A program made the position numbers and the translations under genes. DNA of 25,516 bases from a virus (Duplodnaviria; Heunggongvirae; Uroviricota; Caudoviricetes): positions 1 to 25,516 of IMG/VR virus record IMGVR_UViG_2695420503_000007; one strand, 5' to 3'. The notes under the pieces were generated by a model that was not told the origin of the DNA, ran no database searches, and saw nothing but the letters and a program-made list of their open reading frames with translations. Of the stretch, positions 1 to 25,064 are shown in pieces; positions within the stretch are counted from its first letter, which is position 1; each line of letters opens with the position of its first letter.

Positions 1-1
1 T

Positions 2-115
2 GTATCTTCTAATCCAAATGGATATTTTGTCGGGAATCAGAGAACAACAGCATATGGGATAAATGAAACCCGTCCACGGAATATTGCATTTAACTATATC
101 GTGAGGGCTGCATAA
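2..115 (+). CDS. tail-fibre C-terminal variable cassette, 3' end only (gene continues left of the window)
   Basis: Open frame enters from the left edge and stops at TAA 113-115, overlapping the ATG of the next gene. Translation ...GYFVGNQRTTAYGINETRPRNIAFNYIVRAA resembles C-termini of Mu S / P1 S / e14 Stf-type fibres. It is followed by a Tfa gene on the same strand. Confidence 0.55.
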   Translation, partial: VSSNPNGYFVGNQRTTAYGINETRPRNIAFNYIVRAA

Positions 116-717
116 TGGATAACGCTGTATTAAATAGCGAGTTTATTGCTACAAAGGCGGGGAATATTACCGTCTATAACTATGATGGCGAAACACGGGA
201 ATATATTTCCACATCAACTGAATATCTTGCTGTGGGTGTCGGTATCCCTGCATATTCCTGTTTAGATGCCCCTGGCACATACAAAGCTGGTTATGCAATC
301 TGCCGATCTGTAGATTTTAACTCATGGGAATATGTGCCAGACCATCGCGGTGAAATCGTCTTTAGCACCGAAACAGGAGAATCAAAAGAAATCACAGCTC
401 CGGGTGATTACCCTGATAATACAACCACTATCGCCCCGTTAACGCCATACGATAAATGGGATGGTGAGAAATGGGTGACGGATACCGAAGCACAGCATAG
501 CGCCGCAGTAGATGCAGCAGAAGCACAGCGCCAGTCACTGATTGATACTGCAATGGCTTCAATCAGTCTGATTCAGCTGAAATTGCAGGCCGGACGTAAA
601 CTGACGCAGGCAGAAACAACCAGCCTTAACACTGTGCTGGATTACATTGACGCGGTGACGGCAACAGATACCAGCACCGCGCCGGATGTCATCTTGCCTG
701 AACTGCCGGAGGCGTAG
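115..717 (+). CDS. tail fibre assembly chaperone (Tfa, Mu U'-like)
   Basis: 200-aa ORF directly downstream of the fibre cassette and translationally coupled to it (TAATG). Size and position are typical of Tfa. It converges on a second Tfa gene on the other strand. Confidence 0.65.
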   Translation: MDNAVLNSEFIATKAGNITVYNYDGETREYISTSTEYLAVGVGIPAYSCLDAPGTYKAGYAICRSVDFNSWEYVPDHRGEIVFSTETGESKEITAPGDYPDNTTTIAPLTPYDKWDGEKWVTDTEAQHSAAVDAAEAQRQSLIDTAMASISLIQLKLQAGRKLTQAETTSLNTVLDYIDAVTATDTSTAPDVILPELPEA

Positions 718-1129
718 GCCATTCAATATCTGGCGCACTGGCGGTATCGACCAGCTCCAGTGCGTCCAGATAATCCAGCCACAAATTATATTGTGCCAGT
801 TCCCCACCTTTCAGACGACCAATAGCTGCTTTACCAGGCCATTGCTTACCGTTCATGTAATCATTGGCTAAATCTATTCTTTTTTGCTTCTCCACATCAG
901 CAGCGACAATTAATTCTTCTCGTGTAGGTGGAGGAATATCACCCCATGCTGGCATGTTATTTAAAGTTATAAGTTGCTTACCTGTAGGGGGAGTGCCGGA
1001 AAACTCATAATAAATACTGTCACTAACGTTAATGGCATCATGTGGCCAACAATTATTATCAACATAATCAGCCTGCCACTCGATGGCATAAAAACGGGAC
1101 TCAGATGGACTGAACACAAAACGATTCAT
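689..1129 (-). CDS. tail fibre assembly chaperone (Tfa, Mu U-like)
   Basis: 146-aa ORF immediately downstream of the left tail-fibre gene on the - strand, 1 bp apart. Its 3' end overlaps the opposing Tfa gene (689..717), as in invertible fibre segments. Confidence 0.65.
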   Translation of the reverse strand: MNRFVFSPSESRFYAIEWQADYVDNNCWPHDAINVSDSIYYEFSGTPPTGKQLITLNNMPAWGDIPPPTREELIVAADVEKQKRIDLANDYMNGKQWPGKAAIGRLKGGELAQYNLWLDYLDALELVDTASAPDIEWPTPPAVQAR

Positions 1130-1130
1130 A

Positions 1131-1730
1131 TTAATATCCTATAGCTAAAAACATAGCGTCTGAGGTGTTTGTATTTACAGCAATATTCATCATGACCTGA
1201 GCGGTAAATCCTGTATTGCTTACCCACTCGCATGAGTTAGTTATCTGAACCCATGTTAATTTGGTAGAAAAAACGCCCCAGCAATTAACAGGGAACGGGA
1301 CAGGGAAAGTCACTGGCACAGAATTTACTACACCGACAGTAGTCAAATTTGCGAGCGTCCGGCGAAACACCTGAATCTTAAGACCATCAGGACCTGTAAA
1401 TAACAAATTATCGGTGTACTGCCCGCTTGCTCTTAAACCAAGGTTTTCGAGAGCCGTTTTCACCGTGCCGTCCGATTTGATATCGCCAAACGGATTTTTG
1501 CGGCTTAACAGCAGCGCACGAAGCGCGGTAAGCAACTGGTCGTGCCGCCCTTTCTCCAGGCTGGCACCGGAGGCCTCCACAACGCTGCAAAGCTCCTCCT
1601 GCAACATGTCAAAGTAGTCATCATCCAGATCGGTGGCAGGTGTGCCGGTCTGGGGGTTACCACGGGTAAAACCGTTCTTACCCGCGCCGAACTTATCCTT
1701 CTGCGCGGTTTTCGTGTCTATACGATGCAT
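1131..1730 (-). CDS. tail fibre protein, left copy (constant N-terminal 99 aa fused to a variable C-terminal ~100 aa)
   Basis: 199-aa ORF. The first 99 aa ([21 protein letters not shown]...TALENLGL) are identical to the start of the right-hand fibre gene at 25065; the sequence then diverges ([14 protein letters not shown]...). It follows the gp48-like gene, the position the fibre gene occupies in Mu/e14-type modules. Confidence 0.75.
1428..1453. other. hix/gix/pix-like 26-bp site-specific inversion site (left copy)
   Basis: Plus-strand TGCTCTTAAACCAAGGTTTTCGAGAG, a 12-2-12 imperfect dyad around AAACC-AA-GGTTT. By recall it matches Salmonella hixL (TTCTTGAAAACCAAGGTTTTTGATAA) at 18 of 26 positions. 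It sits at the constant/variable junction of the fibre gene, where the inverted-repeat homology ends. Confidence 0.6.
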
Positions 1731-1733
1731 GAA

Positions 1734-2318
1734 TTACTCCGGATATTTAAAAATTACGTAGGTATGCGACGGGCAGAGTTTGTTAAGCACACACTCGACA
1801 ACGGTGTCGCCCCAGATACGCAGTGCGGAATCACAGGGATCGCCACATGTCATCCAGGTGGTGTTGGTGGCGGCTGGCATGTTGACCTGCCAGTAATACC
1901 GCCATTCCGGCGCATTCACAGCGTCAGTGCAGGCTGATGAGCAGGTGAACGTGCTTTTGTCGTATCGCGTGATGGTAGCGTCTGGTCTGCCCAGGGCAGC
2001 AAGCTGTGCAAGGTAAAAATCCTCATTGATGCCGCCCGCCAGGTTAACCTTCGCATCCAGTCGTTGCTGACGCTGGCGAAGGGTCTGTGTCCCTGCGGGA
2101 ATACATTCATCCGGCAGGCCGCACAGACGCTCCCAGCGGTTTATCAGTTCGGTGGTGGTGCGCGGATCCAGCTCCCGCATCAGGGCATCCGCACGCTGAT
2201 GAACGCGGGTTAATGACGGTGCCGAACCGGCAATCGCCGGATCGCTGGCTGACCACGCCGGACCGGGGGGCAACAGTGCAGACAACAGACGGATGTAATC
2301 ATCGTTTGTCACGTCCAT
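1734..2318 (-). CDS. Mu gp48-like baseplate/tail protein (DUF2313, e14 YmfQ-like), left copy
   Basis: 194-aa ORF between the baseplate J-like gene and the fibre gene, overlapping the J-like gene by 10 bp. Identical to 24477..25061. Confidence 0.7.
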
Positions 2319-3367
2319 GAAATCGTCCCCAGAACCGCCAGTTCATTTTTTGCAATGGAGATATTGTCTGCCGGTGCAAGCAACTGATGGCTGTATTCCC
2401 CGTTCGCACCGGAAATCGCCTCACTGATACGCGACACCTTCAGTTCTCCCTGCGGATAACCATCACGCAGCAGGAACGAACGCAACTCCGCGGTGATGGC
2501 AGCCCGTATTTCCGGTGTATCCGGCGTCACGCGGATATGAAAATCCACTTTATGTGCCACCGGCCTGAATACATACAAATCAGAGCCTGCCACCGGGGCC
2601 AGTGGCCCGATATGTTGTCTTGCCGCCGTTTCCGTTGATTCTTCCGGAATGGGATTAATCAGGTCACTGCTGGCAATCATCACACCGACAGTTCCCGTTC
2701 CCATCCAGTGACGGTATGTCCATGCGCGGGTAATGCCGGGCACTTCTTTAGCCCAGACGACATAGTCCCCGTCAGCCCCGCCCTGCGGCGTCCAGTAATA
2801 CCGCTCAATGACGCGGGCGCGCCACGTTTCCAGATCTTCAGTATCGAATCCGCCAGTCAGGGTATCTGCAACACCGGAAGACGGCAGACCATTCACCGGC
2901 GTGACCAGGATTAATGCCGTACCGTCGTCAGCGTTACCGACCGCGCCTGTAGTTGAGCAAGTGATCGGCACACGCAGGACACCACCGGAGCTGGTTGCAT
3001 CGGCAGTTGCCGTGTACTGAACCAGGTCATCGCGCTGAATCACGCTCCCGGCAGTCACCTTCAGGCCATCGCTGACACCTTCCCAGCGCATATACCCGCT
3101 GGCAGCCGTGGCCCCCTTGCGCGGACACCGTTTCATCGCAGCATGTCGCGCCAGCCAGGACTCATCGCACAGGTCAGGCAGCATATTCATTGCCAGATAA
3201 TCGATGTACCCGTAGACCGTATGCAGCGCCGCCGCATACACCTTTGCCCGCACGTCTTCATCCATGCGCCGGAGCGTGTTGCTGACGTCCAGCCTGGCGA
3301 ATAAATCGTTACGGAGCATACTGATATTTTCTGCCAGCGTCGGGCGCTGAAATTCACTGTCCGCCAT
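2309..3367 (-). CDS. baseplate J-like protein (Mu gp47 / e14 JayE-like), left copy
   Basis: 352-aa ORF with the size and position of the baseplate J family. Identical to 23428..24486. Confidence 0.8.
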
Positions 3368-3782
3368 GCGTTATCGCACTCCACAGATCATCAAAAGAAA
3401 TCATTACCGGTCCGTCACGACGCCAGAGAGTGATACTGTTACCCAGTTCATTAATCCCGGTACGGCGGATATCCAGATCAATACGGGACACCACGCCGTC
3501 ATCAATCATCCATTGCAGGCATTCGCGGATATACCCCCTTACCGTCTGCACCAGCTGATTGGTCAGTTTGCTGCGCTGAAGCAGCCACAGTCGGGAGCCG
3601 TAACGGTCATTCTGTACCGCAGGCCAGGTATCCCCCCACCATCCCATCGGGACGTCGGCGTTGTCATCAGGCTCCGCCCGCCGCCAGGTAAACAGGGAAA
3701 TCACCACGGCGCGGGTCAGCGGATCCAGCGGTGCGCTGGCGCAGGTGCGTTTACCGCTCACCGTCAGCCACAGTTCCATCAT
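3354..3782 (-). CDS. baseplate protein, Mu gp46-like (GPW/gp25-like), left copy
   Basis: 142-aa ORF, translationally coupled between the gp45-like and J-like genes. Identical to 23013..23441. Confidence 0.7.
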   Translation of the reverse strand: MMELWLTVSGKRTCASAPLDPLTRAVVISLFTWRRAEPDDNADVPMGWWGDTWPAVQNDRYGSRLWLLQRSKLTNQLVQTVRGYIRECLQWMIDDGVVSRIDLDIRRTGINELGNSITLWRRDGPVMISFDDLWSAITHGGQ

Positions 3783-4327
3783 GCCTCCATCGCTTTATCA
3801 GGTTTGTCGGTGTTACTGCCCTGACCGTTCTCTCTGTGACGATGCCCGTTATAGGCAAGCCGCATCGCTGACATGGTGGTGCCGCCGGAGTCGCACAGGT
3901 CTTTCACCTGTCCGGTCACTTCCAGGTCCATTTCAAAACGTGCTTTAGGTGAATTGCGAAACGTGATCGTTTTACCTGCACCGTCCACCACGATCCCCTC
4001 CCGGGTCAGCGTCACGGACTGCCCCTGATCGTCATAGACAGCCACCTCACCCGTCTGCAGCCCTTTCAGGCGGTAGCGCCGGTCCGACACCGTAACAACC
4101 ACCGCATGAGAACGGTCGCCATCCGGAAACAACACCACCGCTTCCGCACCGCTGTTTGCCCTTGCGGTAAAACCGTAGGGTTCAAGATGTTCAACCCCGG
4201 CTTTGGGTTCACCGGCAATCAGGGACACATCCACGGTCTGGCATTTCGTGGCGGCACTGATGCTTTTCACCACTGCCCGCCCAATCAGGCCGAGAAGTTG
4301 TCGCTGCATGGCTTCAATCGTCCTCAT
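3779..4327 (-). CDS. baseplate spike/assembly protein V-like (Mu gp45-like), left copy
   Basis: 182-aa ORF identical to 22468..23016; stop/start overlap with neighbours. Confidence 0.75.
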   Translation of the reverse strand: MRTIEAMQRQLLGLIGRAVVKSISAATKCQTVDVSLIAGEPKAGVEHLEPYGFTARANSGAEAVVLFPDGDRSHAVVVTVSDRRYRLKGLQTGEVAVYDDQGQSVTLTREGIVVDGAGKTITFRNSPKARFEMDLEVTGQVKDLCDSGGTTMSAMRLAYNGHRHRENGQGSNTDKPDKAMEA

Positions 4328-4694
4328 CAGAACGGGTCCTCCTGTACTCTGGCTTTTTTCTTTTTCCGCGCGCCGGGAGCTTCGGGTTCAGGCAGATAAG
4401 CATCAGGCGGGCCGACACGGATTTCCGTCAGGGTGCCGTTCTGGTCCTGAGTAAACGTGACTTCCGAGACAAGCAGTTCGGTATTGTCGAAACCACAGAC
4501 CGGATCGAAGACAATCACCCGCTGGTTGGGCTGCCACAGCGTACCGTTACCCTGTCGCCAGCCCTGCACCACATAGGTGGTTTCATCCGTCCGCGCCGCC
4601 CGTTGTCGGGCTTCAAAGTCCGCACGGGCAATACAGCCTGCCCCCGTAGCCTGCCCTGTCTGCCTGATATACATCGGACGGTAACGGGCAATAA
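4327..4694 (-). pseudogene. 5'-truncated copy of the baseplate hub gene (Mu gp44/P-like); only the C-terminal ~122 codons are present
   Basis: Reverse complement is identical to 22101..22468, the 3' third of the intact 359-aa gene at 21389..22468. Homology stops abruptly at 4694 with no start codon or RBS for the fragment. Confidence 0.75.
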
Positions 4695-4940
4695 CGCTGG
4701 GTTAAGACACAGCCGTGTGCATGTTGTGGAAAGCCCGCTGATGATCCTCACCACCTGATAGGTCACGGTCAGGGGGGAATGGGTACAAAAGCGCATGACC
4801 TCTTTGTGTTGCCTTTGTGCAGAAAGCATCACGACGAACTGCATGCGGATACCGTGGCATTTGAAGAGAAGTATGGCTCTCAGTTGGAGCTGATATTTCG
4901 TTTTATCGATCGTGCGCTGGCAACTGGCGTACTGGGCTGA
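4695..4940 (+). pseudogene. 5'-truncated gene remnant (Cys/His-rich C-terminal 81 codons; resembles the DUF968/NinG-region proteins found upstream of Q in lambdoid prophages)
   Basis: Open frame begins exactly at the repeat junction (the in-frame TAA 4692-4694 lies in the repeat) and ends at TGA overlapping the Q-frame ATG. Translation RWVKTQPCACCGKPADDPHHLIGHGQGGMGTKAHDLFVLPLCRKHHDELHADTVAFEEKYGSQLELIFRFIDRALATGVLG has no plausible start. Family assignment is from memory only. Confidence 0.4.
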
Positions 4941-4957
4941 TGTTGTGGAGAAAGTTG

Positions 4958-5299
4958 ATGCGTGACATGTATGAAGTTTTGGACCGCTGGGGAGCATGGG
5001 CTGCAGCAGATAACAGTAGTGTGGACTGGCAGCCGATAGCAGCAGGCTTCAAGGGGCTTTTACCTCATGGTAAAAAAACACGTCTCCAGTGTGATGATGA
5101 TGAAGGGATCATGATAGACGGTTGTGTCGCACGGTTACGTAAATATAAACAAGAAGAATATGAGCTAATAATTGCCCACTTTGTTATTGGTATTTCATTA
5201 CGCGCCATTGCGAAGAAGCGTAAGTGTTCTGATGGGACAATTAGAAAAGATATGCAAACAGCATTAGGTTTTGTTAGTGGTGTGCTATCAATGCTATGA
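4958..5299 (+). CDS. Q: late antiterminator Q (Q21/QuuD-type)
   Basis: Translation MRDMYEVLDRWGAWAA...AAGFKGLL...CDDD...CSDG matches the N-terminal hallmark I recall for DLP12 QuuD-type Q proteins. GGAG sits 7 nt upstream of the ATG at 4958; the track ORF starts at an upstream in-frame ATG (4940) that lacks an RBS. It lies upstream of the lysis cassette. Confidence 0.7.
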   Translation: MRDMYEVLDRWGAWAAADNSSVDWQPIAAGFKGLLPHGKKTRLQCDDDEGIMIDGCVARLRKYKQEEYELIIAHFVIGISLRAIAKKRKCSDGTIRKDMQTALGFVSGVLSML

Positions 5300-5302
5300 T
5301 TA

Positions 5303-5325
5303 TAAGAGGCCTTAGGGCCTCTTTA
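5303..5325. terminator. hairpin between the convergent Q and cassette genes (candidate bidirectional intrinsic terminator)
   Basis: AGAGGCC-TTAG-GGCCTCT perfect 7-bp stem, flanked by T-rich sequence on the + strand and A/T-rich sequence on the - strand, in the 27-bp gap between the two stop codons. Confidence 0.5.
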
Positions 5326-6069
5326 CTAAATTACTTGGATGATGAAAGAAACAATCAATGTTGCTAAACCACCAATAGCAGATACTTTAAATTCCGAACC
5401 ACGAAATACCATCTTCCCATTGACCTTTATATTATTTGCAATGAATGGTGATATTCCAACGGCCGCACTCATGAAATATAAAGAAGAAATCATTTTCTTT
5501 TGAAACTCATTCAAGTCTGGCATTAACAGTGTAATTGATAAAAAAATACAAAAACTTAAAAATCCAATAATAGCAGTGACAATTAATTTCCAATTCATTG
5601 GGGTACCTATAGTAAATCCATCGATTGGCAATTTTCGAGACTCAAATTCCGCAATAATAGCGGTGTAAATATCTTTTGATGAGTACTTTTTAATGATTCT
5701 TTGGATGTTTGATAGACCATCTTTGCTATACAATACAATATTGTCTGGATCAATTTTTAGGTGTTTAATGTTTGCCACCATCATGTCGTAGTATTCTAAA
5801 TAAGTTTCCAGAACTGCTCGACAGTCTCCAGCTAACGAAATGGCGAATGTCTTATTGTCATCCAGTTTACATAAATCTACTTTTTGAACTAACTTAACAG
5901 CGGTATTAAAATATTTTGAAGCATGCTGCTGAACTTCATGTAGGTCAGCAAGGTTTGATATACCGCCATTACGCACGTATGGCTGAATACCACGTAAAAA
6001 TCTTTCCTTTGCAGAAGTCAGCTCCGACGTTACTTCGTCGGGGCTGATCTGAAACACATCATTATTCAT
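5326..6069 (-). CDS. hypothetical membrane-anchored protein (about 160-aa soluble N-terminal domain plus 2-3 C-terminal hydrophobic helices); cassette gene B
   Basis: 247-aa ORF, AT-rich, on the strand opposite all flanking phage genes. Hydrophobic segments WKLIVTAIIGFLSFCIFLSITLLM, ISSLYFMSAAVGISPFIA and VSAIGGLATLIVSFIIQVI. Start overlaps the stop of the upstream small gene (ATGA). I do not recognise the family. Confidence 0.75.
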   Translation of the reverse strand: MNNDVFQISPDEVTSELTSAKERFLRGIQPYVRNGGISNLADLHEVQQHASKYFNTAVKLVQKVDLCKLDDNKTFAISLAGDCRAVLETYLEYYDMMVANIKHLKIDPDNIVLYSKDGLSNIQRIIKKYSSKDIYTAIIAEFESRKLPIDGFTIGTPMNWKLIVTAIIGFLSFCIFLSITLLMPDLNEFQKKMISSLYFMSAAVGISPFIANNIKVNGKMVFRGSEFKVSAIGGLATLIVSFIIQVI

Positions 6070-6329
6070 TTTTGTTTTGGTGCCAGCATTCTTAATGCAG
6101 TGTTAAGATCAGAGTTGTCCACACTTTCAGTGATTAAGAATTGGGTATTGGGAACATGACGGCTGATAATGCCTTGGAGCATGCTACGACTTATAACTTT
6201 ACCACTTTGAAGCGCGGAGTTAATGTCATTTTGTATCAAAGTGATTTCACGCTCGGTACAGGGGAAACCCCACCGAGTAACATTTGCATATTCACCAATT
6301 TTTTTCTTAAATTCTAGGTAGTTACTCAT
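6066..6329 (-). CDS. hypothetical small soluble protein (87 aa); cassette gene A, first gene of a two-gene operon
   Basis: AT-rich ORF with a strong SD (AAGGAG) 8 nt upstream of the ATG, translationally coupled to gene B. No recognisable motif. Confidence 0.7.
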   Translation of the reverse strand: MSNYLEFKKKIGEYANVTRWGFPCTEREITLIQNDINSALQSGKVISRSMLQGIISRHVPNTQFLITESVDNSDLNTALRMLAPKQK

Positions 6330-6355
6330 TGCAGTTCTCCTTGTTTGTAACCACG

Positions 6356-6368
6356 TTAATCATATCAA
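6356..6368 (-). promoter_or_regulatory. candidate extended -10 promoter (TGaTATGAT) for the two-gene cassette
   Basis: On the - strand, TGATATGAT lies about 30 nt upstream of the gene A ATG, preceded by an A/T-rich tract with no good -35. Pattern match only. Confidence 0.3.
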
Positions 6369-6447
6369 AAAGCAAAATAATAAAAAACTAACGCGTACGC
6401 AAAAAGTATTGTATCGTGTTAAGAGTGGTTACTTCGCCACGCAGCTT

Positions 6448-6472
6448 AAACCCGCCGATGAGCGGGTTTTGT
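6448..6472 (+). terminator. tR'-like intrinsic terminator hairpin upstream of the lysis genes
   Basis: AAA-CCCGC-cgatga-GCGGG-TTTT, a GC stem followed by a T-run, about 150 bp upstream of the holin start. This is the position of tR' (6S RNA terminator) in lambdoid late regions, where Q-modified polymerase reads through. Confidence 0.5.
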
Positions 6473-6620
6473 CGTCTCTGGCCCGGCTGTTAGTTGGGCT
6501 TGGCCTATCCCGCAGTTATCCATTTGCTCGGCTTCTTTGACGTTTCCGCTTCTGATTTGCGGTTCCTGATATTCCCTCAATTTGCACCTGCTGTATCAGC
6601 AAGGTGAGAGATAACTATAA

Positions 6621-6947
6621 ATGCCTCATAACCCAAATACCTGGCTGGAGTTGCTCCAGAGCTGGTGGCGTGGAGACACCCCGCTGGGCGCAGTGATTAT
6701 GTCGATCGTTATGGCTGGTTTGCGCATCGCCTATTTTGGCGGTGGTGGTGGCTGGAAGCGAAAAACGCTCGAGATTTTGCTATGTGGCGCTCTGACGCTG
6801 ACCTTTGCATCCGCTCTTGAGTATGTCGGATGGCCTAAATCGCTTTCTGTTGCCATTGGTGGTGGCGTGGGGCTGATCGGTGTCGATGCTATTCGTGGGG
6901 CTGCAATGCGAGTAATCGGTAACAAATTTGGTAGCTCGAAGGAGTAA
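6621..6947 (+). CDS. holin
   Basis: 108-aa ORF directly upstream of the endolysin, with hydrophobic helices, a Gly-rich loop and a charged C-terminus (KFGSSKE). RBS AAGGTGAGAG precedes it. Confidence 0.75.
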   Translation: MPHNPNTWLELLQSWWRGDTPLGAVIMSIVMAGLRIAYFGGGGGWKRKTLEILLCGALTLTFASALEYVGWPKSLSVAIGGGVGLIGVDAIRGAAMRVIGNKFGSSKE

Positions 6948-6950
6948 TTT

Positions 6951-7427
6951 ATGCAGGCACTAAATTCCCAGCGTAAAGCTTTCCTGGATATGGTGGCATG
7001 GTCAGAAGGAACGGATAACGGGCGACAGCCGACACGTAACCACGGTTATGATGTTATTGTTGGTGGCGAACTGTTCACTGATTACTCCGATCACCCTCGC
7101 AAACTTGTCACGCTAAACCCCAAACTCAAATCAACAGCTGCCGGACGTTACCAGCTTCTTTCACGCTGGTGGGATGCTTACCGTAAACAGCTTGGCCTGA
7201 AAGATTTTTCTCCAGAAAGCCAGGACGCTGTAGCTCTGCAGCAGATTAAAGAGCGTGGTGCTTTACCGATGATTGACCGCGGCAGTATTCGTCAGGCAAT
7301 CGACCGTTGCAGCAATATCTGGGCGTCGTTACCTGGTGCAGGTTACGGTCAGTATGAACATAAAATCGGTGACCTGATTGCCCGATTTAAAAAAGCTGGT
7401 GGGGTAGTAAATGAAGCTGAGATATAA
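6951..7427 (+). CDS. R: endolysin, lambda R-type lytic transglycosylase
   Basis: Translation ...NSQRKAFLDMVAWSEGTDNGRQPTRNHGYDVIVGGELFTDYSDHPRKLVTLNPKLKSTAAGRYQLLSRWWDAYRKQLGLKDFSP... is near-identical to lambda R as I recall it. Confidence 0.9.
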   Translation: MQALNSQRKAFLDMVAWSEGTDNGRQPTRNHGYDVIVGGELFTDYSDHPRKLVTLNPKLKSTAAGRYQLLSRWWDAYRKQLGLKDFSPESQDAVALQQIKERGALPMIDRGSIRQAIDRCSNIWASLPGAGYGQYEHKIGDLIARFKKAGGVVNEAEI

Positions 7428-7803
7428 GCTGGTTATTGTTGCCTTCGTTGTTAGCGTCATTGGTTCCTTCATCTGGTCTGCTGGGCATTACTACAGCAAA
7501 TATCAGCACGAAAAGGAGCGTGCTGATGAGGCTGTACGAAATGCTGAATCAGCAACTGCCATTACCCGTAACGTTCTTCAATCACTGCAAATCATCAATA
7601 CAGTTATAGAGGCTAACCAGCATGCAAAACAGCAGATCGCACTGGAGTCACAGAGAACCCAGGAAGATATCAAAGTGGCTGTTGCGGATGATGATTGTGC
7701 TTCACGTCATGTGCCTGCTGCCGCTGCTGACCGGTTGCGGAAGTACGCGAACAGTTTACGTACCGATTCCGGCGGTACCGTTGCCAGCAAGCCTGACTAC
7801 TGA
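7411..7803 (+). CDS. Rz: i-spanin (Rz-type)
   Basis: 130-aa ORF overlapping the endolysin 3' end, with an N-terminal TM helix (LVIVAFVVSVIGSFIW) followed by a charged, coiled-coil-like region. It contains the start of an out-of-frame lipoprotein gene. Confidence 0.75.
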   Translation: MKLRYKLVIVAFVVSVIGSFIWSAGHYYSKYQHEKERADEAVRNAESATAITRNVLQSLQIINTVIEANQHAKQQIALESQRTQEDIKVAVADDDCASRHVPAAAADRLRKYANSLRTDSGGTVASKPDY

Positions 7804-7960
7804 AACTCCCCAGCCAGTCATTCCCGAGCCGCTGACCTATGGGGCCAGTCTGGATCTGAATGTGAGCCTGCTTTCGGCGTTGGGACAATGCAATATTGAC
7901 AAAGCGGGGATTCGAAGTATCGATATGCGCCGTAACGCTTTGCTGGCAGCAGGCAAATAG
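7688..7960 (+). CDS. Rz1: o-spanin lipoprotein (Rz1-type), overlapped architecture
   Basis: In the +1 frame relative to Rz: MMIVLHVMCLLPLLTGCGS with lipobox LLTGC, then a Pro-rich mature region. It starts inside Rz and extends about 157 bp past the Rz stop. Confidence 0.65.
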   Translation: MMIVLHVMCLLPLLTGCGSTRTVYVPIPAVPLPASLTTETPQPVIPEPLTYGASLDLNVSLLSALGQCNIDKAGIRSIDMRRNALLAAGK

Positions 7961-7986
7961 TCCGGACAAAGAACAGGAATATATTT

Positions 7987-8337
7987 ATGCCCCCTCGAAC
8001 TCCAAAATCCTGCCGCGTTCGCGGCTGCCGTAATACCACGACAGACCCGTCAGGCTACTGCGAAAGCCACAAAAGCGAAGGCTGGAAGCAATACAAGTCA
8101 GGACAATCCCGTCATCAGCGCGGTTATGGTTCTAAGTGGGACGCTATCCGCGCGCGTGTGCTGCAACGTGACAAAGGCCTGTGTCAGTTATGTCTGCGTG
8201 CTGGTGTGGCGCGTGAAGCGAAAACCGTTGACCACATCATCCCTAAAGCACATGGCGGCACTGATGCCGACAGTAATCTGCAGAGTCTGTGCTGGCCGTG
8301 TCATAAGGCGAAGACGGCCCGTGAACGGCTTAAGTGA
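7987..8337 (+). CDS. HNH endonuclease (terminase-associated)
   Basis: 116 aa with Cys pairs CRVRGC...C and CQLC...CWPCH and the HNH core DHIIPKAHGGTDADSNLQSLCWPCH, immediately upstream of the terminase genes. Confidence 0.85.
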   Translation: MPPRTPKSCRVRGCRNTTTDPSGYCESHKSEGWKQYKSGQSRHQRGYGSKWDAIRARVLQRDKGLCQLCLRAGVAREAKTVDHIIPKAHGGTDADSNLQSLCWPCHKAKTARERLK

Positions 8338-8453
8338 TAATAACTCTCAACTGTCTGAGGGGAGGGGCGGGTCAAATCTCTGTGACCTGACGTCTTCCGG
8401 ACTGCCCGCCCCATCGTTTTTTTATACCCGCGAAAAATGAAATTTAACCAGGA

Positions 8454-8957
8454 GTGCCGCATATGGCTGGAACGGCGGGGCGTTCCGGGCGTCGCCCCAA
8501 GCCAACGGCGCGCAAGGCGCTGGCCGGAAACCCCGGCAAGCGAGCCCTGAATAAAGATGAACCTGTTTTTACGCCCATCAAAGGTGTTGAGCCACCGGAG
8601 TGGTTCGCTGAAGAAGATCTCCCTCTCGCCACGATCATGTGGCAACTGACAACCAAAGAACTCTGCGGTCAGGGCCTGCTGTGCGTGACTGACCTCGCGG
8701 TGCTTGAGCGGTGGTGCGTGGCCTATGAGTTCTGGCGACGTGCCGTGAAAAATATTGCCAGCCAGGGCAACACCATTACCGGTGCAATGGGCGGTATGGT
8801 CAAAAACCCGGAGCTGACCGCCAAGAAAGAACAGGAGTCCGAGATGAGCAGCACGGGGGCAATGCTCGGACTCGACCCCAGCAGCCGCCAGCGTCTGATT
8901 GGCCTGGCGGGGCAGAAGAAAGCCACTAACCCGTTTCTGAAAATCATCGAGTCATGA
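8454..8957 (+). CDS. terminase small subunit
   Basis: 167-aa ORF with a basic N-terminus ([14 protein letters not shown]), translationally coupled to the large terminase (ATGA overlap at 8954-8957); RBS AGGAG. Confidence 0.8.
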
Positions 8958-10687
8958 GCAGGAAATCTTACCCCAACGTAAATGCTGCCAATCAGTATGC
9001 CCGGGATGTCGTGCGCGGAAAGATTGTGGCCTGCCAGTTTGTGATTCAGGCCTGCCAGCGCCATCTTGATGACCTGATGGCGGAAAAAAGTAAGTCGTTT
9101 CGTTACCGCTTCGACAAGGACCTGGCTGAACGGGCCGCGAAATTTATTCAGCTGTTGCCGCACACCAAGGGTGAGTGGGCATTCAAACGGATGCCCATCA
9201 CGCTGGAGCCGTGGCAGCTATTTGTGATCTGCTGTGCGTTTGGCTGGGTCAATAAAGGCACCCGGTTGCGCCGCTTCCGGGAGGTGTATACCGAAATCCC
9301 CCGTAAGAACGGCAAATCAGCAATCTCTGCTGGTGTTGCCCTGTATTGTTTTGCCTGTGATAACGAGTTTGGCGCGGAAGTGTATTCCGGTGCCACGACA
9401 GAGAAACAGGCGTGGGAAGTCTTTCGCCCGGCGCGACTGATGTGTAAACGCACACCCATGCTGACGGAAGCGTTCGGGATTGAGGTTAACGCTTCAAACA
9501 TGAACCGTCCGGAGGATGGCGCGCGGTTTGAACCGCTGATCGGTAACCCCGGTGATGGTTCATCACCCCACTGTGCCGTGGTTGATGAATATCACGAGCA
9601 TGCCACCGATGCGCTTTATACCACAATGCTTACCGGGATGGGGGCGCGACGTCAGCCACTGATGTGGGCCATCACCACCGCCGGGTACAACATTGAGGGG
9701 CCGTGCTACGACAAGCGGCGGGAAGTCATCGAGATGCTCAACGGCTCGGTGCCTAACGATGAACTGTTCGGGATCATCTATACCGTTGATGAAGGTGACG
9801 ACTGGACCGACCCGCAGGTGCTGGAAAAAGCCAATCCAAATATTGGCGTGTCGGTTTATCGCGAATTTTTGTTAAGTCAGCAGCAGCGTGCGAAAAATAA
9901 CGCCCGTCTGGCAAACGTCTTTAAAACAAAACACCTCAATATCTGGGTGTCGGCGCGTTCGGCGTATTTCAACCTGGTGAGCTGGCAGAGCTGCGAGGAT
10001 AAATCACTGACCCTTGAGCAGTTCGAGGGGCAGCCGTGCATTCTGGCCTTTGACCTGGCGCGTAAGCTGGATATGAACAGCATGGCGCGACTTTATACCC
10101 GCGAGATTGACGGTAAAACGCATTACTACAGTGTGGCCCCGCGCTTCTGGGTACCGTATGACACGGTGTACAGCGTCGAGAAAAATGAAGATAGACGGAC
10201 AGCCGAACGCTTTCAGAAATGGGTGGAAATGGGCGTCCTGACCGTTACCGATGGTGCAGAGGTGGATTATCGCTACATCCTCGAGGAGGCCAAAGCGGCG
10301 AACAAAATCAGCCCGGTCAGTGAGTCACCCATCGACCCCTTCGGGGCGACCGGGCTGTCGCATGACCTTGCTGATGAAGATCTGAATCCCGTCACTATCG
10401 TCCAGAACTTCGCCAATATGTCCGATCCGATGAAAGAGCTGGAAGCAGCGATTGAATCGGGACGCTTTCATCATGACGGCAATCCCATCATGACCTGGTG
10501 TATCGGCAATGTGGTCGGCAAAAACATGCCAGGTAACGATGATTTAGTGAAGCCCGTCAAGGAGCAGACGGAAAACAAAATCGATGGTGCGGTTGCACTG
10601 ATTATGACGATCGGTCGGGCAATGCTCAAAGAACCTGACGATTTCCTCTCATCTCTTGATCCGGACGATGATCTCTTAATTCTATGA
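8954..10687 (+). CDS. terminase large subunit
   Basis: 577-aa ORF. Its position and size, and the downstream portal, protease and capsid genes, fit the HK97-type head module. Confidence 0.9.
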
Positions 10688-10845
10688 AATCACTAATTGC
10701 TGATGTTATCGGGCTGGCTGGTTTTGGCCTGCTTACGTGCGGGGTTTACCTGCAGTTTGGTATGGCTCCGGCTCTGATTTTGTCCGGTGCTTTACTGCTG
10801 GTGGGCGCACTGGCTATGGCCAGAAGGGGGACGCGTGCTGCTTGA
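10684..10845 (+). CDS. small hydrophobic protein (53 aa, two predicted TM segments); not in the ORF track because it is under 60 aa
   Basis: ATG overlaps the terminase stop (ATGA). Translation [53 protein letters not shown]. It fills the terminase-portal gap and ends a few bp into the likely portal start. Confidence 0.35.
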
Positions 10846-12061
10846 TGCTCTGTTCAGAAGTAAATCACTGGAGAATCCTTCCACCCCGATAACCGGGGAT
10901 GCCGTTGATACTGATGGGCTGTTCCGGGCAGACGTTTATGTCAGTCCTGAGACTGCGATGAAACTGGCTGCGGTGTATTCCTGTATCTATGTCCTGTCTT
11001 CCAGCCTTGCCCAGATGCCGTTGCATGTTATGCGCAGGCACAAGGGGAAGGTTGAACCCGCACGCGATCATCCTGCGTTTTATCTGGTTCATGATGAGCC
11101 CAATACCTGGCAAACCAGCTACAAATGGCGCGAACTGAAGCAACGTCACATCCTTGGCTGGGGGAATGGGTATACCTGGGTGAAACGTAATCGTCGCGGT
11201 GAAGTCATATCCCTGGATTGCTGTATGCCGTGGGAAACGACGCTGATGAATACTGGTGGCCGATATACCTACGGTTTGTACAACGAATATGGGGCGTTTG
11301 CGATCAGTCCGGACGATATGATCCACATCCGTGCGCTGGGTAATAATCAGAAGATGGGGCTGAGTCCGATTATGCAACATGCCGAAACAATAGGCATGGG
11401 GATGAGCGGTCAGAAGTACACAGAAAGCTTCTTCAGCGGTAATGCCCGTCCGGCGGGGATAGTATCCGTTAAAAGCGGACTCAATAAGGAAAGCTGGGGC
11501 TGGCTTAAAGATCAGTGGCAGAAGGCATCGCAGGCGTTACGCCGCCAGGAAAACAAAACCATGCTGCTGCCAGCCGATCTGGATTACAAGGCACTGACTG
11601 TGTCGCCAGTTGACGCTCAGATCATTGACATGATGAAGCTGAACCGTTCAATGATCGCCGGTATTTTCAATATTCCTGCGCACATGATTAATGACCTCGA
11701 AAAAGCCACCTTCTCCAATATTTCTGCGCAGGCGATTCAGTTTGTCCGCTACACGATGATGCCGTGGGTGACGAACTGGGAGCAGGAGCTTAACCGTCGC
11801 TTGTTTACCCGCGCTGAGTTAGCCGCCGGGTATTACGTCAGGTTCAATCTGACGGGGCTTTTACGCGGAACTCCGCAGGAGCGCGCGCAATTCTATCACT
11901 TCGCTATTACCGATGGATGGATGAGCCGTAATGAGGCCCGCGCATTCGAGGATATGAATCCGGTTGAAGGGCTGGATGAGATGCTGGTAAGCGTGAACGC
12001 TGCTAACCCGGCAGGAGATTTTAAGCCCCCAAAAAACGATGAGGGAAAAACCAATGAATGA
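10787..12061 (+). CDS. portal protein (HK97 family)
   Basis: 424-aa track ORF. The real start is probably the in-frame GTG near 10835 (AAGGGGG RBS; product would begin [10 protein letters not shown]...); the 10787 ATG has no RBS and overlaps the small ORF. Confidence 0.85.
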   Translation: MLYCWWAHWLWPEGGRVLLDALFRSKSLENPSTPITGDAVDTDGLFRADVYVSPETAMKLAAVYSCIYVLSSSLAQMPLHVMRRHKGKVEPARDHPAFYLVHDEPNTWQTSYKWRELKQRHILGWGNGYTWVKRNRRGEVISLDCCMPWETTLMNTGGRYTYGLYNEYGAFAISPDDMIHIRALGNNQKMGLSPIMQHAETIGMGMSGQKYTESFFSGNARPAGIVSVKSGLNKESWGWLKDQWQKASQALRRQENKTMLLPADLDYKALTVSPVDAQIIDMMKLNRSMIAGIFNIPAHMINDLEKATFSNISAQAIQFVRYTMMPWVTNWEQELNRRLFTRAELAAGYYVRFNLTGLLRGTPQERAQFYHFAITDGWMSRNEARAFEDMNPVEGLDEMLVSVNAANPAGDFKPPKNDEGKTNE

Positions 12062-12656
12062 CCGTGAAATCCGTTGTTACAGCGGTGAGGTGCGTGCTGA
12101 GAGGCATGACGATAACCCGGCGCACATTATCGGTTATGGATCGGTGTTTGACTGTCGTTCTGAGCTGATATTCGGTTCATTCCGCGAAATCATCCGGCCC
12201 GGCGCTTTTGACGATGTGCTTGGTGATGATGTACGCGCACTGTTTAACCACGATCCTAATTTTATTCTTGGGCGTAGTGCAGCAGGCACGCTGAATCTTT
12301 CAGTTGATGAGCGCGGATTACGCTATGACATCCAGGCTCCGGAGACACAGACCATTCGTGATCTGGTGCTGGCCCCGATGCAACGTGGAGATATTAACCA
12401 GTCATCTTTCGCTTTCCGTGTCGCCCGTGACGGTGAGGAGTGGTATCAGGATGAGGATGGGGTTGTTATTCGCGAGATAACCCGCTTTTCCCGTCTGCTG
12501 GATGTCAGTCCTGTGACATATCCTGCCTATCAGGAGGCTGACTCGGCTGTTCGCTCCATGAAAGCATGGCAGGAGGCGCGCAACAGCGGCGCGCTACAGA
12601 AAGCCATTAATCAACGTATGGCGCGTGAACGCGTCCTGACCCTTCTTAACGCGTAA
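12039..12656 (+). CDS. prohead maturation protease (HK97 gp4-like)
   Basis: 205-aa ORF between the portal and capsid genes, overlapping the portal 3' end. Confidence 0.85.
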   Translation: MREKPMNDREIRCYSGEVRAERHDDNPAHIIGYGSVFDCRSELIFGSFREIIRPGAFDDVLGDDVRALFNHDPNFILGRSAAGTLNLSVDERGLRYDIQAPETQTIRDLVLAPMQRGDINQSSFAFRVARDGEEWYQDEDGVVIREITRFSRLLDVSPVTYPAYQEADSAVRSMKAWQEARNSGALQKAINQRMARERVLTLLNA

Positions 12657-12666
12657 AGGAAACATC

Positions 12667-13896
12667 ATGAAACTGCATGAACTGAAACAGAAACGTAATA
12701 CTATCGCAACTGACATGCGCGCCCTGAATGAAAAAATTGGTGATAACGCATGGACGGAAGAGCAGCGCACTGAGTGGAACAAAGCAAAATCCGAACTGGA
12801 AGCGCTTGATGAACGAATTGCACGCGAAGAAGAACTGCGTCGTCAGGATCAGGCGTACATTGAAAGCAATGAGGAAGAGCAGCGTCAGAATCTTGATCCG
12901 GAAAACAATCCACAACAGGATGAGAAACGAGCTCAGGTTTTTGATAAGTGGATGCGTCACGGTGCCAGTGAGCTGACATCAGAAGAACGAAAGGCGTTGC
13001 GTGAACTTCGTGCCCAGGGTGTAGCTCAGGATGAAAAGGGCGGATATACCGTACCAGAAACATTCCTGGCGAAAGTTGTTGAGAAGATGAAATCCTACGG
13101 TGGCATCGCCAGTGTGGCGCAGATTCTGACCACTTCAGATGGTCGCACTATGGAGTGGGCAACAGCTGATGGTACTTCCGAAGTTGGTGTTCTGCTGGGC
13201 GAAAATGAAGAAGCCGGTGAAGAAGACACCGATTTCGGTATGGGGAGCCTTGGGGCGCTCAAAATGACATCGAAAATCATTCGTGTGTCTAATGAGTTGC
13301 TGCAGGACAGCGCGATCGATATGGAAGCTTATCTTGCCCGTCGCATTGCTGAACGTATTGGTCGTGGTGAAGCCCGTTATCTGATTCAGGGGACTGGTGC
13401 GGGTACGCCTAAACAACCCAAAGGGCTGGCAGCATCAGTGACCGGCACAACACAGACTGCCGCGGCAAATGCGGTGAAGTGGCAGGAAATTCTGGCTCTG
13501 AAACACAGCATTGATCCTGCATATCGTCGCGGACCGAAATTCCGCCTGGCGTTTAACGATAATACGCTGAAACTGATCAGTGAGATGGAAGACGGTCAGG
13601 GACGCCCTTTATGGTTGCCGGATATTGTTGGTGTGGCACCTGCTTCAGTGTTGAATGTACCGTATGTCATTGATCAGGAAATTGATGATATCGGGGCGGG
13701 TAAAAAATTCATGTTCTGTGGTGACTTTGATCGCTTCATTATCCGTCGTGTGCGATACATGATTCTTAAACGTCTGGTTGAGCGTTACGCGGAATATGAT
13801 CAGACCGGTTTTCTGGCCTTCCATCGTTTTGACTGTATCCTGGAAGACACCTCTGCCATTAAAGCGCTGGTGGGGAAAGGTAGCGTTGGTGGTTGA
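12667..13896 (+). CDS. major capsid protein (HK97 fold) with N-terminal scaffolding-like domain
   Basis: 409 aa. The N-terminal ~100 aa are highly charged and coiled-coil (ELEALDERIAREEELRRQDQ), then a capsid body. It follows the protease, with RBS AGGAAA. Confidence 0.9.
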   Translation: MKLHELKQKRNTIATDMRALNEKIGDNAWTEEQRTEWNKAKSELEALDERIAREEELRRQDQAYIESNEEEQRQNLDPENNPQQDEKRAQVFDKWMRHGASELTSEERKALRELRAQGVAQDEKGGYTVPETFLAKVVEKMKSYGGIASVAQILTTSDGRTMEWATADGTSEVGVLLGENEEAGEEDTDFGMGSLGALKMTSKIIRVSNELLQDSAIDMEAYLARRIAERIGRGEARYLIQGTGAGTPKQPKGLAASVTGTTQTAAANAVKWQEILALKHSIDPAYRRGPKFRLAFNDNTLKLISEMEDGQGRPLWLPDIVGVAPASVLNVPYVIDQEIDDIGAGKKFMFCGDFDRFIIRRVRYMILKRLVERYAEYDQTGFLAFHRFDCILEDTSAIKALVGKGSVGG

Positions 13897-13920
13897 TTAG
13901 TCTTTTACGTAATACAGCAC

Positions 13921-13963
13921 GCCGCGTAATGCGGTTTTTTTGTGCCCGCGTTCTGGCGGGCAC
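13921..13963 (+). terminator. tandem hairpins downstream of the capsid gene (candidate partial terminator)
   Basis: GCCGC-gtaat-GCGG followed by T7, then a perfect 8-bp stem GTGCCCGC-gttctg-GCGGGCAC immediately before AGGAGG and the ATG of the next gene. Confidence 0.45.
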
Positions 13964-13973
13964 AGGAGGTTTT

Positions 13974-14297
13974 ATGCTGTTAAAAATGGAAGAGATTAAG
14001 CTTCAGCTCCGTCTGGATGATGATTTCTCTGATGAAGATGAGTTGCTTGAACTGCTTGGTAAGGCCGCTCAGAGTCGAACGGAAAACTTCCTTAACCGTA
14101 CGTTGTATGCAACCGCAGATGACAGGCCTGCGGATGATCCTGATGGGCTTGTGATATCTGATGATGTGAAGCTGGCGCTTCTGCTACTTGTCAGCCATTT
14201 CTACGAAAACCGCTCAACGGTTACAGACGTTGAGAAAATGGAGTTGCCAATGAGTTTTAACTGGTTGGTTGCTCCTTATCGCCTTATACCACTATGA
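13974..14297 (+). CDS. head-tail connector protein (gp6-like)
   Basis: The track ORF begins at 13893, but that would translate through the hairpins. An AGGAGG RBS 4 nt upstream of the in-frame ATG at 13974 gives MLLKMEEIKLQLRLDDDFSDEDE..., about 108 aa, acidic, typical for this family. Confidence 0.7.
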   Translation: MLLKMEEIKLQLRLDDDFSDEDELLELLGKAAQSRTENFLNRTLYATADDRPADDPDGLVISDDVKLALLLLVSHFYENRSTVTDVEKMELPMSFNWLVAPYRLIPL

Positions 14298-14704
14298 AAA
14301 TTCGTCAGGCGCAGACCAGCGCAACCTACATTCTGCCGGACCCCGGCGAACTGAATAAACGCGTCCTGATCCGCCAGCGGGTGGATATGCCCGCGGATAA
14401 CTTTGGCGTGGAGCCTCAATACCCGGTTGCGTTCCGGGCATGGGCGAAGGTTATCCAGACCAGTGCCACCACCTGGCAGGAAACCGCGCAGACCGGGGAC
14501 GCCATCACCCATTACATCACCATTCGCTACCGCCGGGGGATCACCGCTGATTATGAGGTGGTCTGCGGTGACAGTGTGTACCGGGTGAAACGTCAGCGCG
14601 ATCTGAACGGGGCGCGGCGCTTTCTGCTGCTGGAGTGTACGGAACTGGGCGAATTTACGCAGAGTCACGGAGGCAGCAATGGCGACTTCCTTTTTGCACG
14701 TTGA
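14294..14704 (+). CDS. head closure / head-tail adaptor protein
   Basis: 136-aa ORF translationally coupled to the connector gene, in the conserved head-completion position. Confidence 0.6.
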   Translation: MKIRQAQTSATYILPDPGELNKRVLIRQRVDMPADNFGVEPQYPVAFRAWAKVIQTSATTWQETAQTGDAITHYITIRYRRGITADYEVVCGDSVYRVKRQRDLNGARRFLLLECTELGEFTQSHGGSNGDFLFAR

Positions 14705-15185
14705 TTTTCAGCAGCCCGCGGAGATGCGCTTTAACCGCGCCCGTGTCCGGCGGGCGTTTGTCACGATTGGTCAGCGTCATATGCGTGATGCCCGTCGGCT
14801 GGTGATGCGCCGTGCGCGGTCGGCACCGGGTGAAAACCCCGGTTATCAGACCGGACGCCTGGCACGTTCGATTGGTTATATGGTACCCAGAGCCAGTAAA
14901 CATCGCCCCGGTTTTATGGCACGTATAGCCCCTAACCAGCGTAATGGTGAGGGAAACCGCCGCATCACCGGTGATTTTTATCCGGCTTTTTTGTTCTATG
15001 GCGTGAGGCGAGGGGCAAAGCGTCGTCGCAGCCATCATCGTGGTGCATCCGGTGGCAGCGGCTGGCGGCTGGCTCCACGTAATAACTTTATGGTGGAAAC
15101 GCTTGAAAAGAACCGCAGCTGGACACGCTATTTTCTGGCGCGGGAATTACGTAAATCACTGAAGCCGGAGCGACGACACAGATGA
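14679..15185 (+). CDS. virion morphogenesis / neck protein (HK97 gp10-like)
   Basis: 168-aa very basic ORF overlapping its neighbours, in the head-tail joining block. Confidence 0.55.
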   Translation: MATSFLHVDFQQPAEMRFNRARVRRAFVTIGQRHMRDARRLVMRRARSAPGENPGYQTGRLARSIGYMVPRASKHRPGFMARIAPNQRNGEGNRRITGDFYPAFLFYGVRRGAKRRRSHHRGASGGSGWRLAPRNNFMVETLEKNRSWTRYFLARELRKSLKPERRHR

Positions 15186-15742: not shown

Positions 15743-15750
15743 GGATCCTC

Positions 15751-18026: not shown

Positions 18027-18175
18027 CGGCTGAATACCTCACTGATCGCTTCTTTGACTGCGCCAGCTACTGGCGCATTAATCCCTTCGAATTGCTGAAT
18101 ATGCCGATCAGTGAAATTCCCTTGCTGGTCAGTCAGGCAAACAGGATAGAGCAGGAGAAACGCACACATGGCTGA
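17757..18175 (+). CDS. tail assembly chaperone, long form made by a programmed -1 ribosomal frameshift
   Basis: Slippery heptamer T_TTT_TTC at about 18008-18014 lies in the 34-nt overlap between the frame-0 ORF and the -1 ORF 17993..18175. Slipping gives ...WLVAGFF then PPGLTAEYLTDRFF..., about 139 aa, ending at the tape measure start. Confidence 0.55.
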
Positions 18176-25061: not shown

Positions 25062-25064
25062 TTC

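Follow-up and report, generated by a model that had tools for sequence, protein, structure and literature searches.

An e14-type invertible tail-fibre segment of an SfV-like Escherichia coli prophage, probably read in both switch states in one draft scaffold

The window analysed here, a stretch of 25,516 nt taken as a whole, is the entire draft record CYAU01000062.1, a WGS contig of 25,516 bp. We conclude, with a probability of about 0.8, that this scaffold consists of two contigs of one Pin-switch locus, with two fibre cassettes and an inverted duplication that is not genomic. With the same confidence, we assign positions 1-1453 to a ~1.83-kb Pin-invertible fibre segment of an SfV-like myovirus prophage of E. 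coli, about 79% of which they cover. This allele has the anatomy, the crossover sites and the natural inversions of a switch that is already known, as it is an orthologue of the e14 P segment (ymfQ-stfP-tfaP / tfaE-stfE-pinE). The biology adds little, being a further allele pair of the long-known Pin/e14 fibre switch, in this case carried on an SfV-like prophage.

Anatomy of the fibre segment

The left end of the window falls within a StfE-like, collar-type fibre cassette (S'v), the 3′ end of which occupies positions 2-115 on the plus strand (37 codons and a stop, by translation). Frame 2 of positions 1-115 reads ...VSSNPNGYFVGNQRTTAYGINETRPRNIAFNYIVRAA*, and the stop codon at 113-115 overlaps the ATG of the next gene (TAATG). 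That gene (115-717, plus strand) encodes the 200-aa Tfa for S'v, an orthologue of TfaE (Pfam Caudo_TAP, E = 1.3e-30; PHROG 105, 2e-96). The 146-aa, TfaP-like Tfa for the other cassette (Sv) is encoded on the minus strand at 689-1129 (Pfam Caudo_TAP, E = 1.5e-25; PHROG 188, 3e-52), and the 3′ ends of the two tfa genes overlap by 29 nt (689-717). The whole fibre ORF that follows (1131-1730, minus strand, from ORF prediction and Pfam) encodes 199 aa with a Gp53-like_C tip. Its C-terminal ~102 aa constitute Sv (1131-1439, minus strand; PF21882, 3.7e-07) and its N-terminal ~97 aa the constant part Sc in the copy of contig c1 (1440-1730, minus strand, recognized by identity to StfP). At the other end of the window, Sc is fused to the 5′ part of S'v with its collar domain (25355-25516, plus strand; Pfam Collar, 2.3e-12), which reaches the contig end. 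The two fibre 3′ cassettes are convergent, each has its own Tfa that matches Caudo_TAP, and the tips differ (Collar versus Gp53-like_C). A sequence-only reading of this DNA had placed the fibre ends, both Tfa genes and the overlap at the same coordinates, which held when we rechecked the ORFs and their translations.

Crossover sites, invertase and natural inversions

Two 26-bp crossover sites of Din type, each with imperfect inverted half-sites of ~12 bp on either side of a 2-bp core, were identified in the window. The Sc/Sv site (1428-1453; TGCTCTTAAACC AA GGTTTTCGAGAG, with the central dinucleotide at 1440-1441) is located at the constant/variable border of the 199-aa fibre gene. The Sc/S'v site (25342-25367; CTCTCGAAAACC TT GGTTTGGGAGAA) is the same as the K-12 e14 stfP site and contains the repeat TTGGTTTGGGAGAAGG that was reported for e14 (Kirigo et al., 2025; PMC12529663). 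Searched with the pattern TTCTCNNAAACCNNGGTTTNNGAGAA, from which these sites differ at 2 and 1 positions, respectively, the window has only these two matches, and 0 were expected (100 shuffles).

Within the window we detected neither the far-end crossover site, which is expected ~388 nt past the left contig end, nor an invertase gene (tblastn with PinE, best E = 4.3). Both were found in L018, a sibling assembly with 2 mismatches to the window in 17,349 nt. In detail, the order in L018 is Sc/S'v, 225 nt, window positions 1-1446, the second site (19002-19027) and, 55 nt beyond the site, a gene for a 184-aa protein with Resolvase and HTH_7 domains that shares 180/184 residues with PinE. The far-end site is also seen in the related loci L004, L002 and L003 and in K-12, and pinE adjoins the segment in L002, L004, L016 and L017; in the canonical neighbours it is directly after the silent cassette. 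Judging from the sibling assemblies and relatives, the window locus probably has both the far-end site and the invertase. The earlier reading had also considered that the plus-strand fibre end might belong to an independent gene with no flanking inversion site. In L018, an inversion site and a pin gene bound this ORF, which is a silent cassette in the state seen at the left of the window and not an independent gene.

Both orientations of the segment occur in nature. A second sibling assembly, L019, is 100% identical to the window across 17,193 nt and represents the same prophage in the Sc/Sv state. L018 and L019 are in opposite switch states, as are the two halves of the window. The sibling isolates Z1323PEC0011 and Z1323PEC0013 are identical in the flanks, and the 1815 bp between the sites in one are the exact reverse complement of those in the other. 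The end points of this inversion map to the site at 1428-1453. Among complete genomes, the Sv allele was found at the Sc/Sv junction in 8, and the pin/Sv junction that we predicted in silico was found in 11, one of them at 200/200 identity.

In the mechanism that we propose, Sc (~97 codons), the constant 5′ part of the fibre gene, ends in the 26-bp crossover site. The segment contains Sv (the Gp53-like tip) and the 146-aa Tfa, convergent with S'v (the collar-type tip) and its 200-aa, TfaE-like chaperone. A serine invertase orthologous to PinE, presumably encoded past the contig end and directly beyond the segment on its far side, would carry out strand exchange at the central dinucleotide of each inverted site, so that either Sv and its Tfa or S'v and the TfaE-like chaperone would be fused in frame to Sc. 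The fused fibre and its matched Tfa would then be transcribed from the late operon. By the precedents of Mu, P1 and e14, inversion may be expected to change the receptor specificity.

The inverted repeat and the scaffold join

The window contains a perfect inverted repeat of 3270 nt (1425-4694 and 22101-25370, 100% complementary). The left arm (minus strand) carries Sc, YmfQ, baseplate J, gp46/W, gp45/V and the 3′ third of a P-like baseplate gene (ORFs, with Pfam labels and by reference to L010 and L032). The right arm (plus strand) is the same baseplate-to-Sc block, in place inside a complete SfV-like prophage and colinear with phage SfV and with complete prophages. Position 4694, the inner end of the left arm, reads “N” in CYAU01000062.1 but “A” in the window, and this base is the only difference between the window and the public record across the positions compared (1-14674). 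As the public record has just one N at the inner end of the repeat, the window comprises two contigs, c1 (1-4693) and c2 (4695-25516). The 4694/4695 junction was absent, as an exact 30-mer, from IMG/VR, the GTDB representative genomes and the JGI metagenomes and, by BLAST, from 5,426 complete E. coli genomes and from phage and plasmid records. The inverted duplication is therefore without independent support. The inner breakpoint has neither microhomology nor a Din-type site.

A truncated DUF968 product of 53 aa was found only in this record and on one short metagenome contig without the join, where adapter sequence comes first and normal DUF968 follows. We rejected a deletion remnant in which the 5′ part of DUF968 is fused to the 'P fragment, and which would have provided the two contig ends with a shared repeat neighbour, as a synthetic 200-nt query of that junction was covered by no genome. 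A circular molecule or a phage-genome record as the source was also rejected, as no phage or plasmid record matches and the record is a WGS contig. Comparison of the two moron ORFs at 5326-6329 with PADLOC returned nothing meaningful, and the 247-aa moron protein occurs too widely to be of use.

The culture that was sequenced most likely contained both switch states, from which the assembler built two overlapping versions, with the N as the join between them. If so, c1 would read the locus in the Sc/Sv state and c2 would read the same prophage in the Sc/S'v state. Assembly of one locus from mixed states implies that there are two cassettes, not three, and that the 3.27-kb duplication is not genomic. 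Clonal cultures contain the e14 segment in both orientations at once (Goldberg et al., 2014; PMC4272514), its 1797 bp are inverted by PinE and PinQ, and about 30% of a wild-type culture was inverted (Kirigo et al., 2025; PMC12529663). One feature runs against the reading of a single locus in two states and is left unaccounted for by it: the baseplate block of c1 stops exactly at 4693/4694, where it is head-to-head with c2. S'v also lacks 225 nt where the two contigs end, which points to another S'v-like copy in the genome.

In an alternative that we consider unlikely, two separate elements share a near-identical baseplate-to-Sc block but are in opposite fibre states, and the collapsed block was read into both contigs. 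The partners would be the complete SfV-like prophage and either an e14-like remnant or a prophage fusion of the FDAARGOS_1287 type. With another S'v-like copy in the genome, both contigs would be expected to break inside S'v, as they do. Most E. coli genomes that match window positions 1-3000 do so in multiple copies (median of 2 places per genome), and in the e14-like remnants L007 and L014 homology breaks within -14/+9 nt of the arm end in the P-like gene. FDAARGOS_1287, in which a P2-type H gene adjoins the segment, comes closest to contig c1 (12 mismatches in 4693 nt). Against two elements, L018 crosses the block and the whole segment into pin without a break on one 54.8-kb contig, so the block looks single-copy in this lineage. 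L019 has this prophage in the opposite state, so that a single switching locus is enough to account for all of the observations. Furthermore, 100% identity over 3270 nt would be unusual for distinct prophages, as relatives typically differ by 2-7%.

There is only a small chance that the N-joined order is real, either as a second inverted baseplate-fibre copy or through the joining of two prophages at invertase sites, as in FDAARGOS_1287, which has one shared segment between a P2-type H gene and an SfV-like Sc. Were this order true, both tips would be encoded at once in a form that is expressed, and the Din-type sites would be hot spots of inter-prophage rearrangement. We regard as very improbable a real 3.27-kb duplication, that is, a truncated inverted baseplate-fibre module upstream of the late region, with both fibres each on their own Sc. 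The deposited scaffold has this order, inverted invertase sites could in principle rearrange the copies, and, as FDAARGOS_1287 demonstrates, such sites can be points at which prophages are joined. However, the join is a single N with no sequence, the inner breakpoint and the database searches for the junction gave the results described above, the truncated DUF968 product is on no other genomic record, and the join is missing from the sibling assemblies of this prophage.

The sequence-only reading had seen a third, different variable region in the right-hand fibre gene and had suggested at least three receptor specificities. Neither claim withstood comparison with the sequence past the window ends, as represented by L018, in which the right and left ends of the window lie 225 nt apart inside one 263-aa fibre ORF and both belong to one S'v, with no third tip. 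Positions 25355-25516 make up the 5′ collar part of the S'v that ends at 1-115: this part is 100% identical to S'v of L018 and continues there into window positions 1-115. Systems with more alternatives exist, and p15B Min and other shufflon-like fibre systems have Din-family invertases, fibre C-terminal cassettes, more than two sites and several cassettes. Also, a prophage with four coexisting variants was described by Goldberg et al. (PMC4272514). The right-hand stretch differs from S'v of L004 and L001 by 4 mismatches in 149-160 nt (156/160 identity), and the 3′ end at 1-115 is identical to theirs (115/115). This 5′ collar part is, however, 92-97% conserved among all S'v alleles and is thus uninformative about a distinct tip. 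A multiple-inversion (Min- or shufflon-like) locus with three or more alternative fibre C-termini is hardly credible here, as the window has two Din-type sites, one per Sc copy, and L018, which has two sites and two cassettes from Sc to pin and no more, already contradicts it.

Relation to known fibre switches

Over 16.6 kb, the structural module (window positions 8396-25000) shares 98% identity with SfV, which with SfII, SfI and SfIV belongs to the serotype-converting Shigella phages; this match ends at the end of the query (25000). In the Mu G segment (Sv-U / U'-S'v, inverted by Gin) and the P1 C segment (Cin), the constant 5′ part of the fibre gene runs up to and into a crossover site, each of two convergent cassettes comprises a variable fibre 3′ end and a Tfa/U gene, and a serine invertase gene of the Hin/Gin/Cin/Pin family adjoins the segment. 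The switch logic of the locus studied here is alike, a comparison based on general knowledge of the layouts and not on sequence. The Mu G segment is larger (~3 kb) and has much longer variable parts, whereas here Sc is ~97 aa and the fibres are 199 and 263 aa.

The closest counterpart is the PinE-inverted P segment of e14, a cryptic prophage of E. coli K-12 (Goldberg et al., 2014, PMC4272514, who cite Plasterk and van de Putte, 1985, and Mehta et al., 2004; Kirigo et al., 2025, PMC12529663). The invertible layout of the Mu G/e14 P type that had been proposed from the letters of the window was borne out by e14-like sites, by the presence of both junction types and by protein identity to K-12, with 179/200 aa (89.5%) shared between the plus-strand Tfa and TfaE and 190/194 between the YmfQ proteins. 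The gene order is alike, as are the upstream ymfQ and baseplate J genes. Sc is identical to K-12 StfP across the first ~99 aa, the Sc-side crossover sites are identical, and the 3′ overlap of the tfa genes is 29 nt in both. The minus-strand Tfa shares 58/92 residues with TfaP in its C-terminal half. The segments differ in length (1797 bp in e14 versus ~1827 bp here), and the Sv tip is another allele (120/195 to StfP overall, with the constant ~100 aa matching well). The distal part of S'v is unlike StfE. Whereas e14 is defective, the host element here is an apparently complete SfV-like prophage, and the window stops short of Pin and the second site. For e14, an effect of the inverted state on the adsorption of T2 is reported by Kirigo et al. 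(PMC12529663).

The record calls for caution, as phase-variable segments in mixed cultures can put both switch states into one draft scaffold, and such scaffolds can mimic large perfect inverted duplications and extra alternative cassettes. In the window, the display of the N at 4694 as an A removed the sole visible clue to the scaffold join. Clean natural examples of inversion are provided by the sibling isolates and by L018 and L019, and these could be used for the choice of strains.

Crossover sites and kinship with the e14 P segment

The window was scanned for the Hin/Gin/Cin/Pin-type 26-mer TTCTCNNAAACCNNGGTTTNNGAGAA with up to three mismatches allowed, and 100 shuffled sequences served as the control. 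This Din-type 26-mer has exactly two matches in 25.5 kb and none in any of the 100 shuffles. The resulting crossover sites are at 1428-1453 (TGCTCTTAAACC AA GGTTTTCGAGAG) and 25342-25367 (CTCTCGAAAACC TT GGTTTGGGAGAA). Both sit at the codons ...ENLGL, the point where the identity of the two fibre genes of the window ends.

An ORF map of the window agreed to the base with the gene coordinates of the sequence-only reading. A fibre C-terminus ending ...NIAFNYIVRAA was recognized from its reading frame (+ strand, stop at 113-115). It is followed by a 200-aa gene, Tfa(+), at 115-717 (+ strand; Pfam Caudo_TAP, 1.3e-30), which starts on an overlapping TAATG. A 146-aa gene, Tfa(-), at 689-1129 (- strand; Caudo_TAP, 1.5e-25) is convergent with it, and the two overlap by 29 nt (689-717). 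Directly upstream on the minus strand is a 199-aa fibre gene (1131-1730) with a tip that Pfam assigns to Gp53-like_C. Each variable part is tightly coupled to its own chaperone, by the TAATG at 113-117 and by a 1-nt spacer at 1130. The right-hand fibre occupies 25065-25516, and its variable start is a Pfam Collar domain. PHROGs assignments of the cassette genes are consistent with those of Pfam.

The cassette block is the orthologue of the P segment of e14, the cryptic prophage of E. coli K-12. In e14, ymfQ-stfP-tfaP faces tfaE-stfE-pinE, and the tfa genes overlap by 29 nt, as in the window. Tfa(+) is identical to TfaE at 179/200 positions and YmfQ to its K-12 counterpart at 190/194. The constant 5' part of the fibre gene (Sc), of ~100 aa, matches StfP; the right-hand fibre begins with a match to StfP 1-105, continued by one to StfE 12-66. 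The stfP site of e14 and the window's right-hand site (25342-25367) are identical in sequence. Complete genomes with the window's alleles display the canonical locus end: H1827/12 encodes pinE, a silent ORF of the S'v (collar-type) cassette, tfaE, tfa, the 199-aa fibre and ymfQ in that order. EC1515 and 11PC share this architecture, with the segment of 11PC in the other orientation. The proposal of a G-segment-like invertible cassette was therefore correct, given the e14 orthology, the crossover sites and the natural inversions, and the cassette is an already known system.

In a related prophage (GCA_033355105.1, 12945-17515), the fibre and Tfa genes are followed by genes for a SopE-like GEF, an IS transposase and a resolvase/invertase, a stretch that stands where the second fibre cassette would be.

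Two cassettes and two contigs

Counting the right-hand variable stretch as a third region, the sequence-only reading had suggested at least three receptor specificities. This is wrong, as the stretch is the start of S'v and continues into window 1-115 in the sibling assembly CYAG01000031.1, which we consider the decisive evidence for its origin. Across alleles of S'v-type cassettes this stretch (...KLPDL), their collar start, is conserved at 92-97% identity. In the related locus L004 and in FDAARGOS_1287, one ORF contains both the stretch and the window's left-end fragment, with the stretch lying 225 nt further upstream. CYAG01000031.1, an accession in the window's series, differs from window 8168-25516 at 2 of 17,349 nt. 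Its order is Sc, site, S'v, 225 nt past the window's right end, then window 1-1446 (+ orientation, 3 mismatches), after which there is a second crossover site, TGCTCTTAAACC AA CGTTTATGAAAA. The locus ends with a 184-aa invertase (180/184 identical to PinE), and the fibre is a single 263-aa protein with the C-terminal end ...NIAFNYIVRAA. Another sibling assembly, CYAN01000055.1, shows 100% identity over 17,193 nt and contains this prophage with Sv, the Gp53-like cassette, attached to Sc. As Sc runs into S'v in one sibling and into Sv in the other, the locus holds two cassettes.

The window corresponds in full to the WGS record CYAU01000062.1 (25,516 bp, assembly GCA_001285105.1), identified through a look-up of the 115-aa protein encoded at 4327-4674, and thus both of its ends are contig ends. 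At position 4694 the record has N where the window has A, the sole difference over record 1-14674 (also confirmed on L032). A perfect inverted repeat of 3270 nt (1425-4694 and 22101-25370) covers Sc, YmfQ and the J, W, V and partial P baseplate genes. On the outside the repeat is bounded by the crossover sites, and on the inside its left arm stops precisely at the N. Thus, the window is a scaffold of c1 (1-4693) and c2 (4695-25516). The latter is an ordinary SfV-like prophage late region (DUF968 end, Q, lysis, terminase, head, tail, baseplate, fibre), with 98% identity to phage SfV over 16.6 kb, and c1 consists of the segment and, after it, the final 3.27 kb of c2 in reverse complement. Most likely, c1 and c2 are one locus read in its two states. 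The join has neither a crossover site nor microhomology, and the junction is absent from every other sequence collection searched. The truncated DUF968 product that it creates is on no other genomic record, and the sole other contig with the product lacks the join.

Alternatively, it is possible that the strain carries a second element sharing the block. In e14-like remnants, homology breaks within -14/+9 nt of the arm-end point in the P-like gene, and a second element is therefore possible. At both contig ends the sequence breaks off inside S'v, which suggests that another S'v-like copy may exist, and FDAARGOS_1287, the closest complete genome to c1, displays a second-element situation. This genome (NZ_CP070071.1, 18565-21730) has the same segment as c1, with 12 mismatches in 4693 nt to window 1-4693. 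On one side of the segment is the constant region of a P2-type H fibre of 516 aa, which has its own Din-type site (19601-19626), and on the other is an SfV-like Sc, with no pin gene between the H gene and Sc. Two different prophages appear to be joined tail-to-tail at the fibre switch. A deletion remnant as common neighbour of both ends was not found. The best explanation of the perfect inverted repeat is a pair of contigs in the two switch states, linked by the scaffold N.

In several e14-like defective elements, among them the related loci L007 (~9842) and L014 (~5250), early-region DNA abuts the final third of the P-like baseplate gene at a point corresponding to window ~22087-22110, and the joins fall within ~25 nt of each other. 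They give rise to a 115-aa ORF that is predicted on numerous contigs (112 index blocks), and the position seems to be a recurrent mosaic or deletion boundary. Separately, the start of a metagenome contig (ENA ERZ27280815 k141_98503, 1-50) resembles Illumina adapter sequence and produces a false truncated DUF968 ORF, the product of which is identical to the 53-aa one of the window.

Natural inversions and the proposed switch

By the Hin/Gin/Cin/Pin paradigm, and with the sibling assembly as a guide, the two sites would be exchanged by a PinE-type serine invertase encoded just outside the segment. This would fuse either Sv with Tfa(146) or S'v with TfaE(200) to Sc, for expression from the late operon. 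By the same analogy, we infer that the unrelated Gp53-like_C and Collar tips may confer different receptor specificities.

We built the post-inversion junction in silico by joining the L004 flank on the pin side, ending at the central dinucleotide, to the window's Sv. This predicted pin-Sv junction is present in 11 complete E. coli genomes (one 200/200 identical), where it is annotated as gp53-like and adjoins pinE; the Sc-Sv junction of the window is present in 8 genomes. Z1323PEC0011 and Z1323PEC0013, isolated from dogs in a single study, have the locus at the same coordinates (857143-858957), next to pinE and with identical flanks. The sole difference at the locus is an exact 1815-bp reverse complement between the sites. 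Inversions with end points inside the crossover sites occur naturally. For e14, published work reports clonal K-12 cultures with both orientations side by side (PMC4272514). It also reports a wild-type culture in which ~30% was inverted, and inversion of the 1797-bp segment by PinE and by PinQ (PMC12529663).

Elsewhere in the window, two ORFs of 247 and 87 aa (5326-6329, - strand) lie antisense between the Q antiterminator and holin genes. They have no Pfam match on record and a PADLOC screen gave nothing meaningful; they matched PHROGs of unknown function (5814, 31842) and may be morons.
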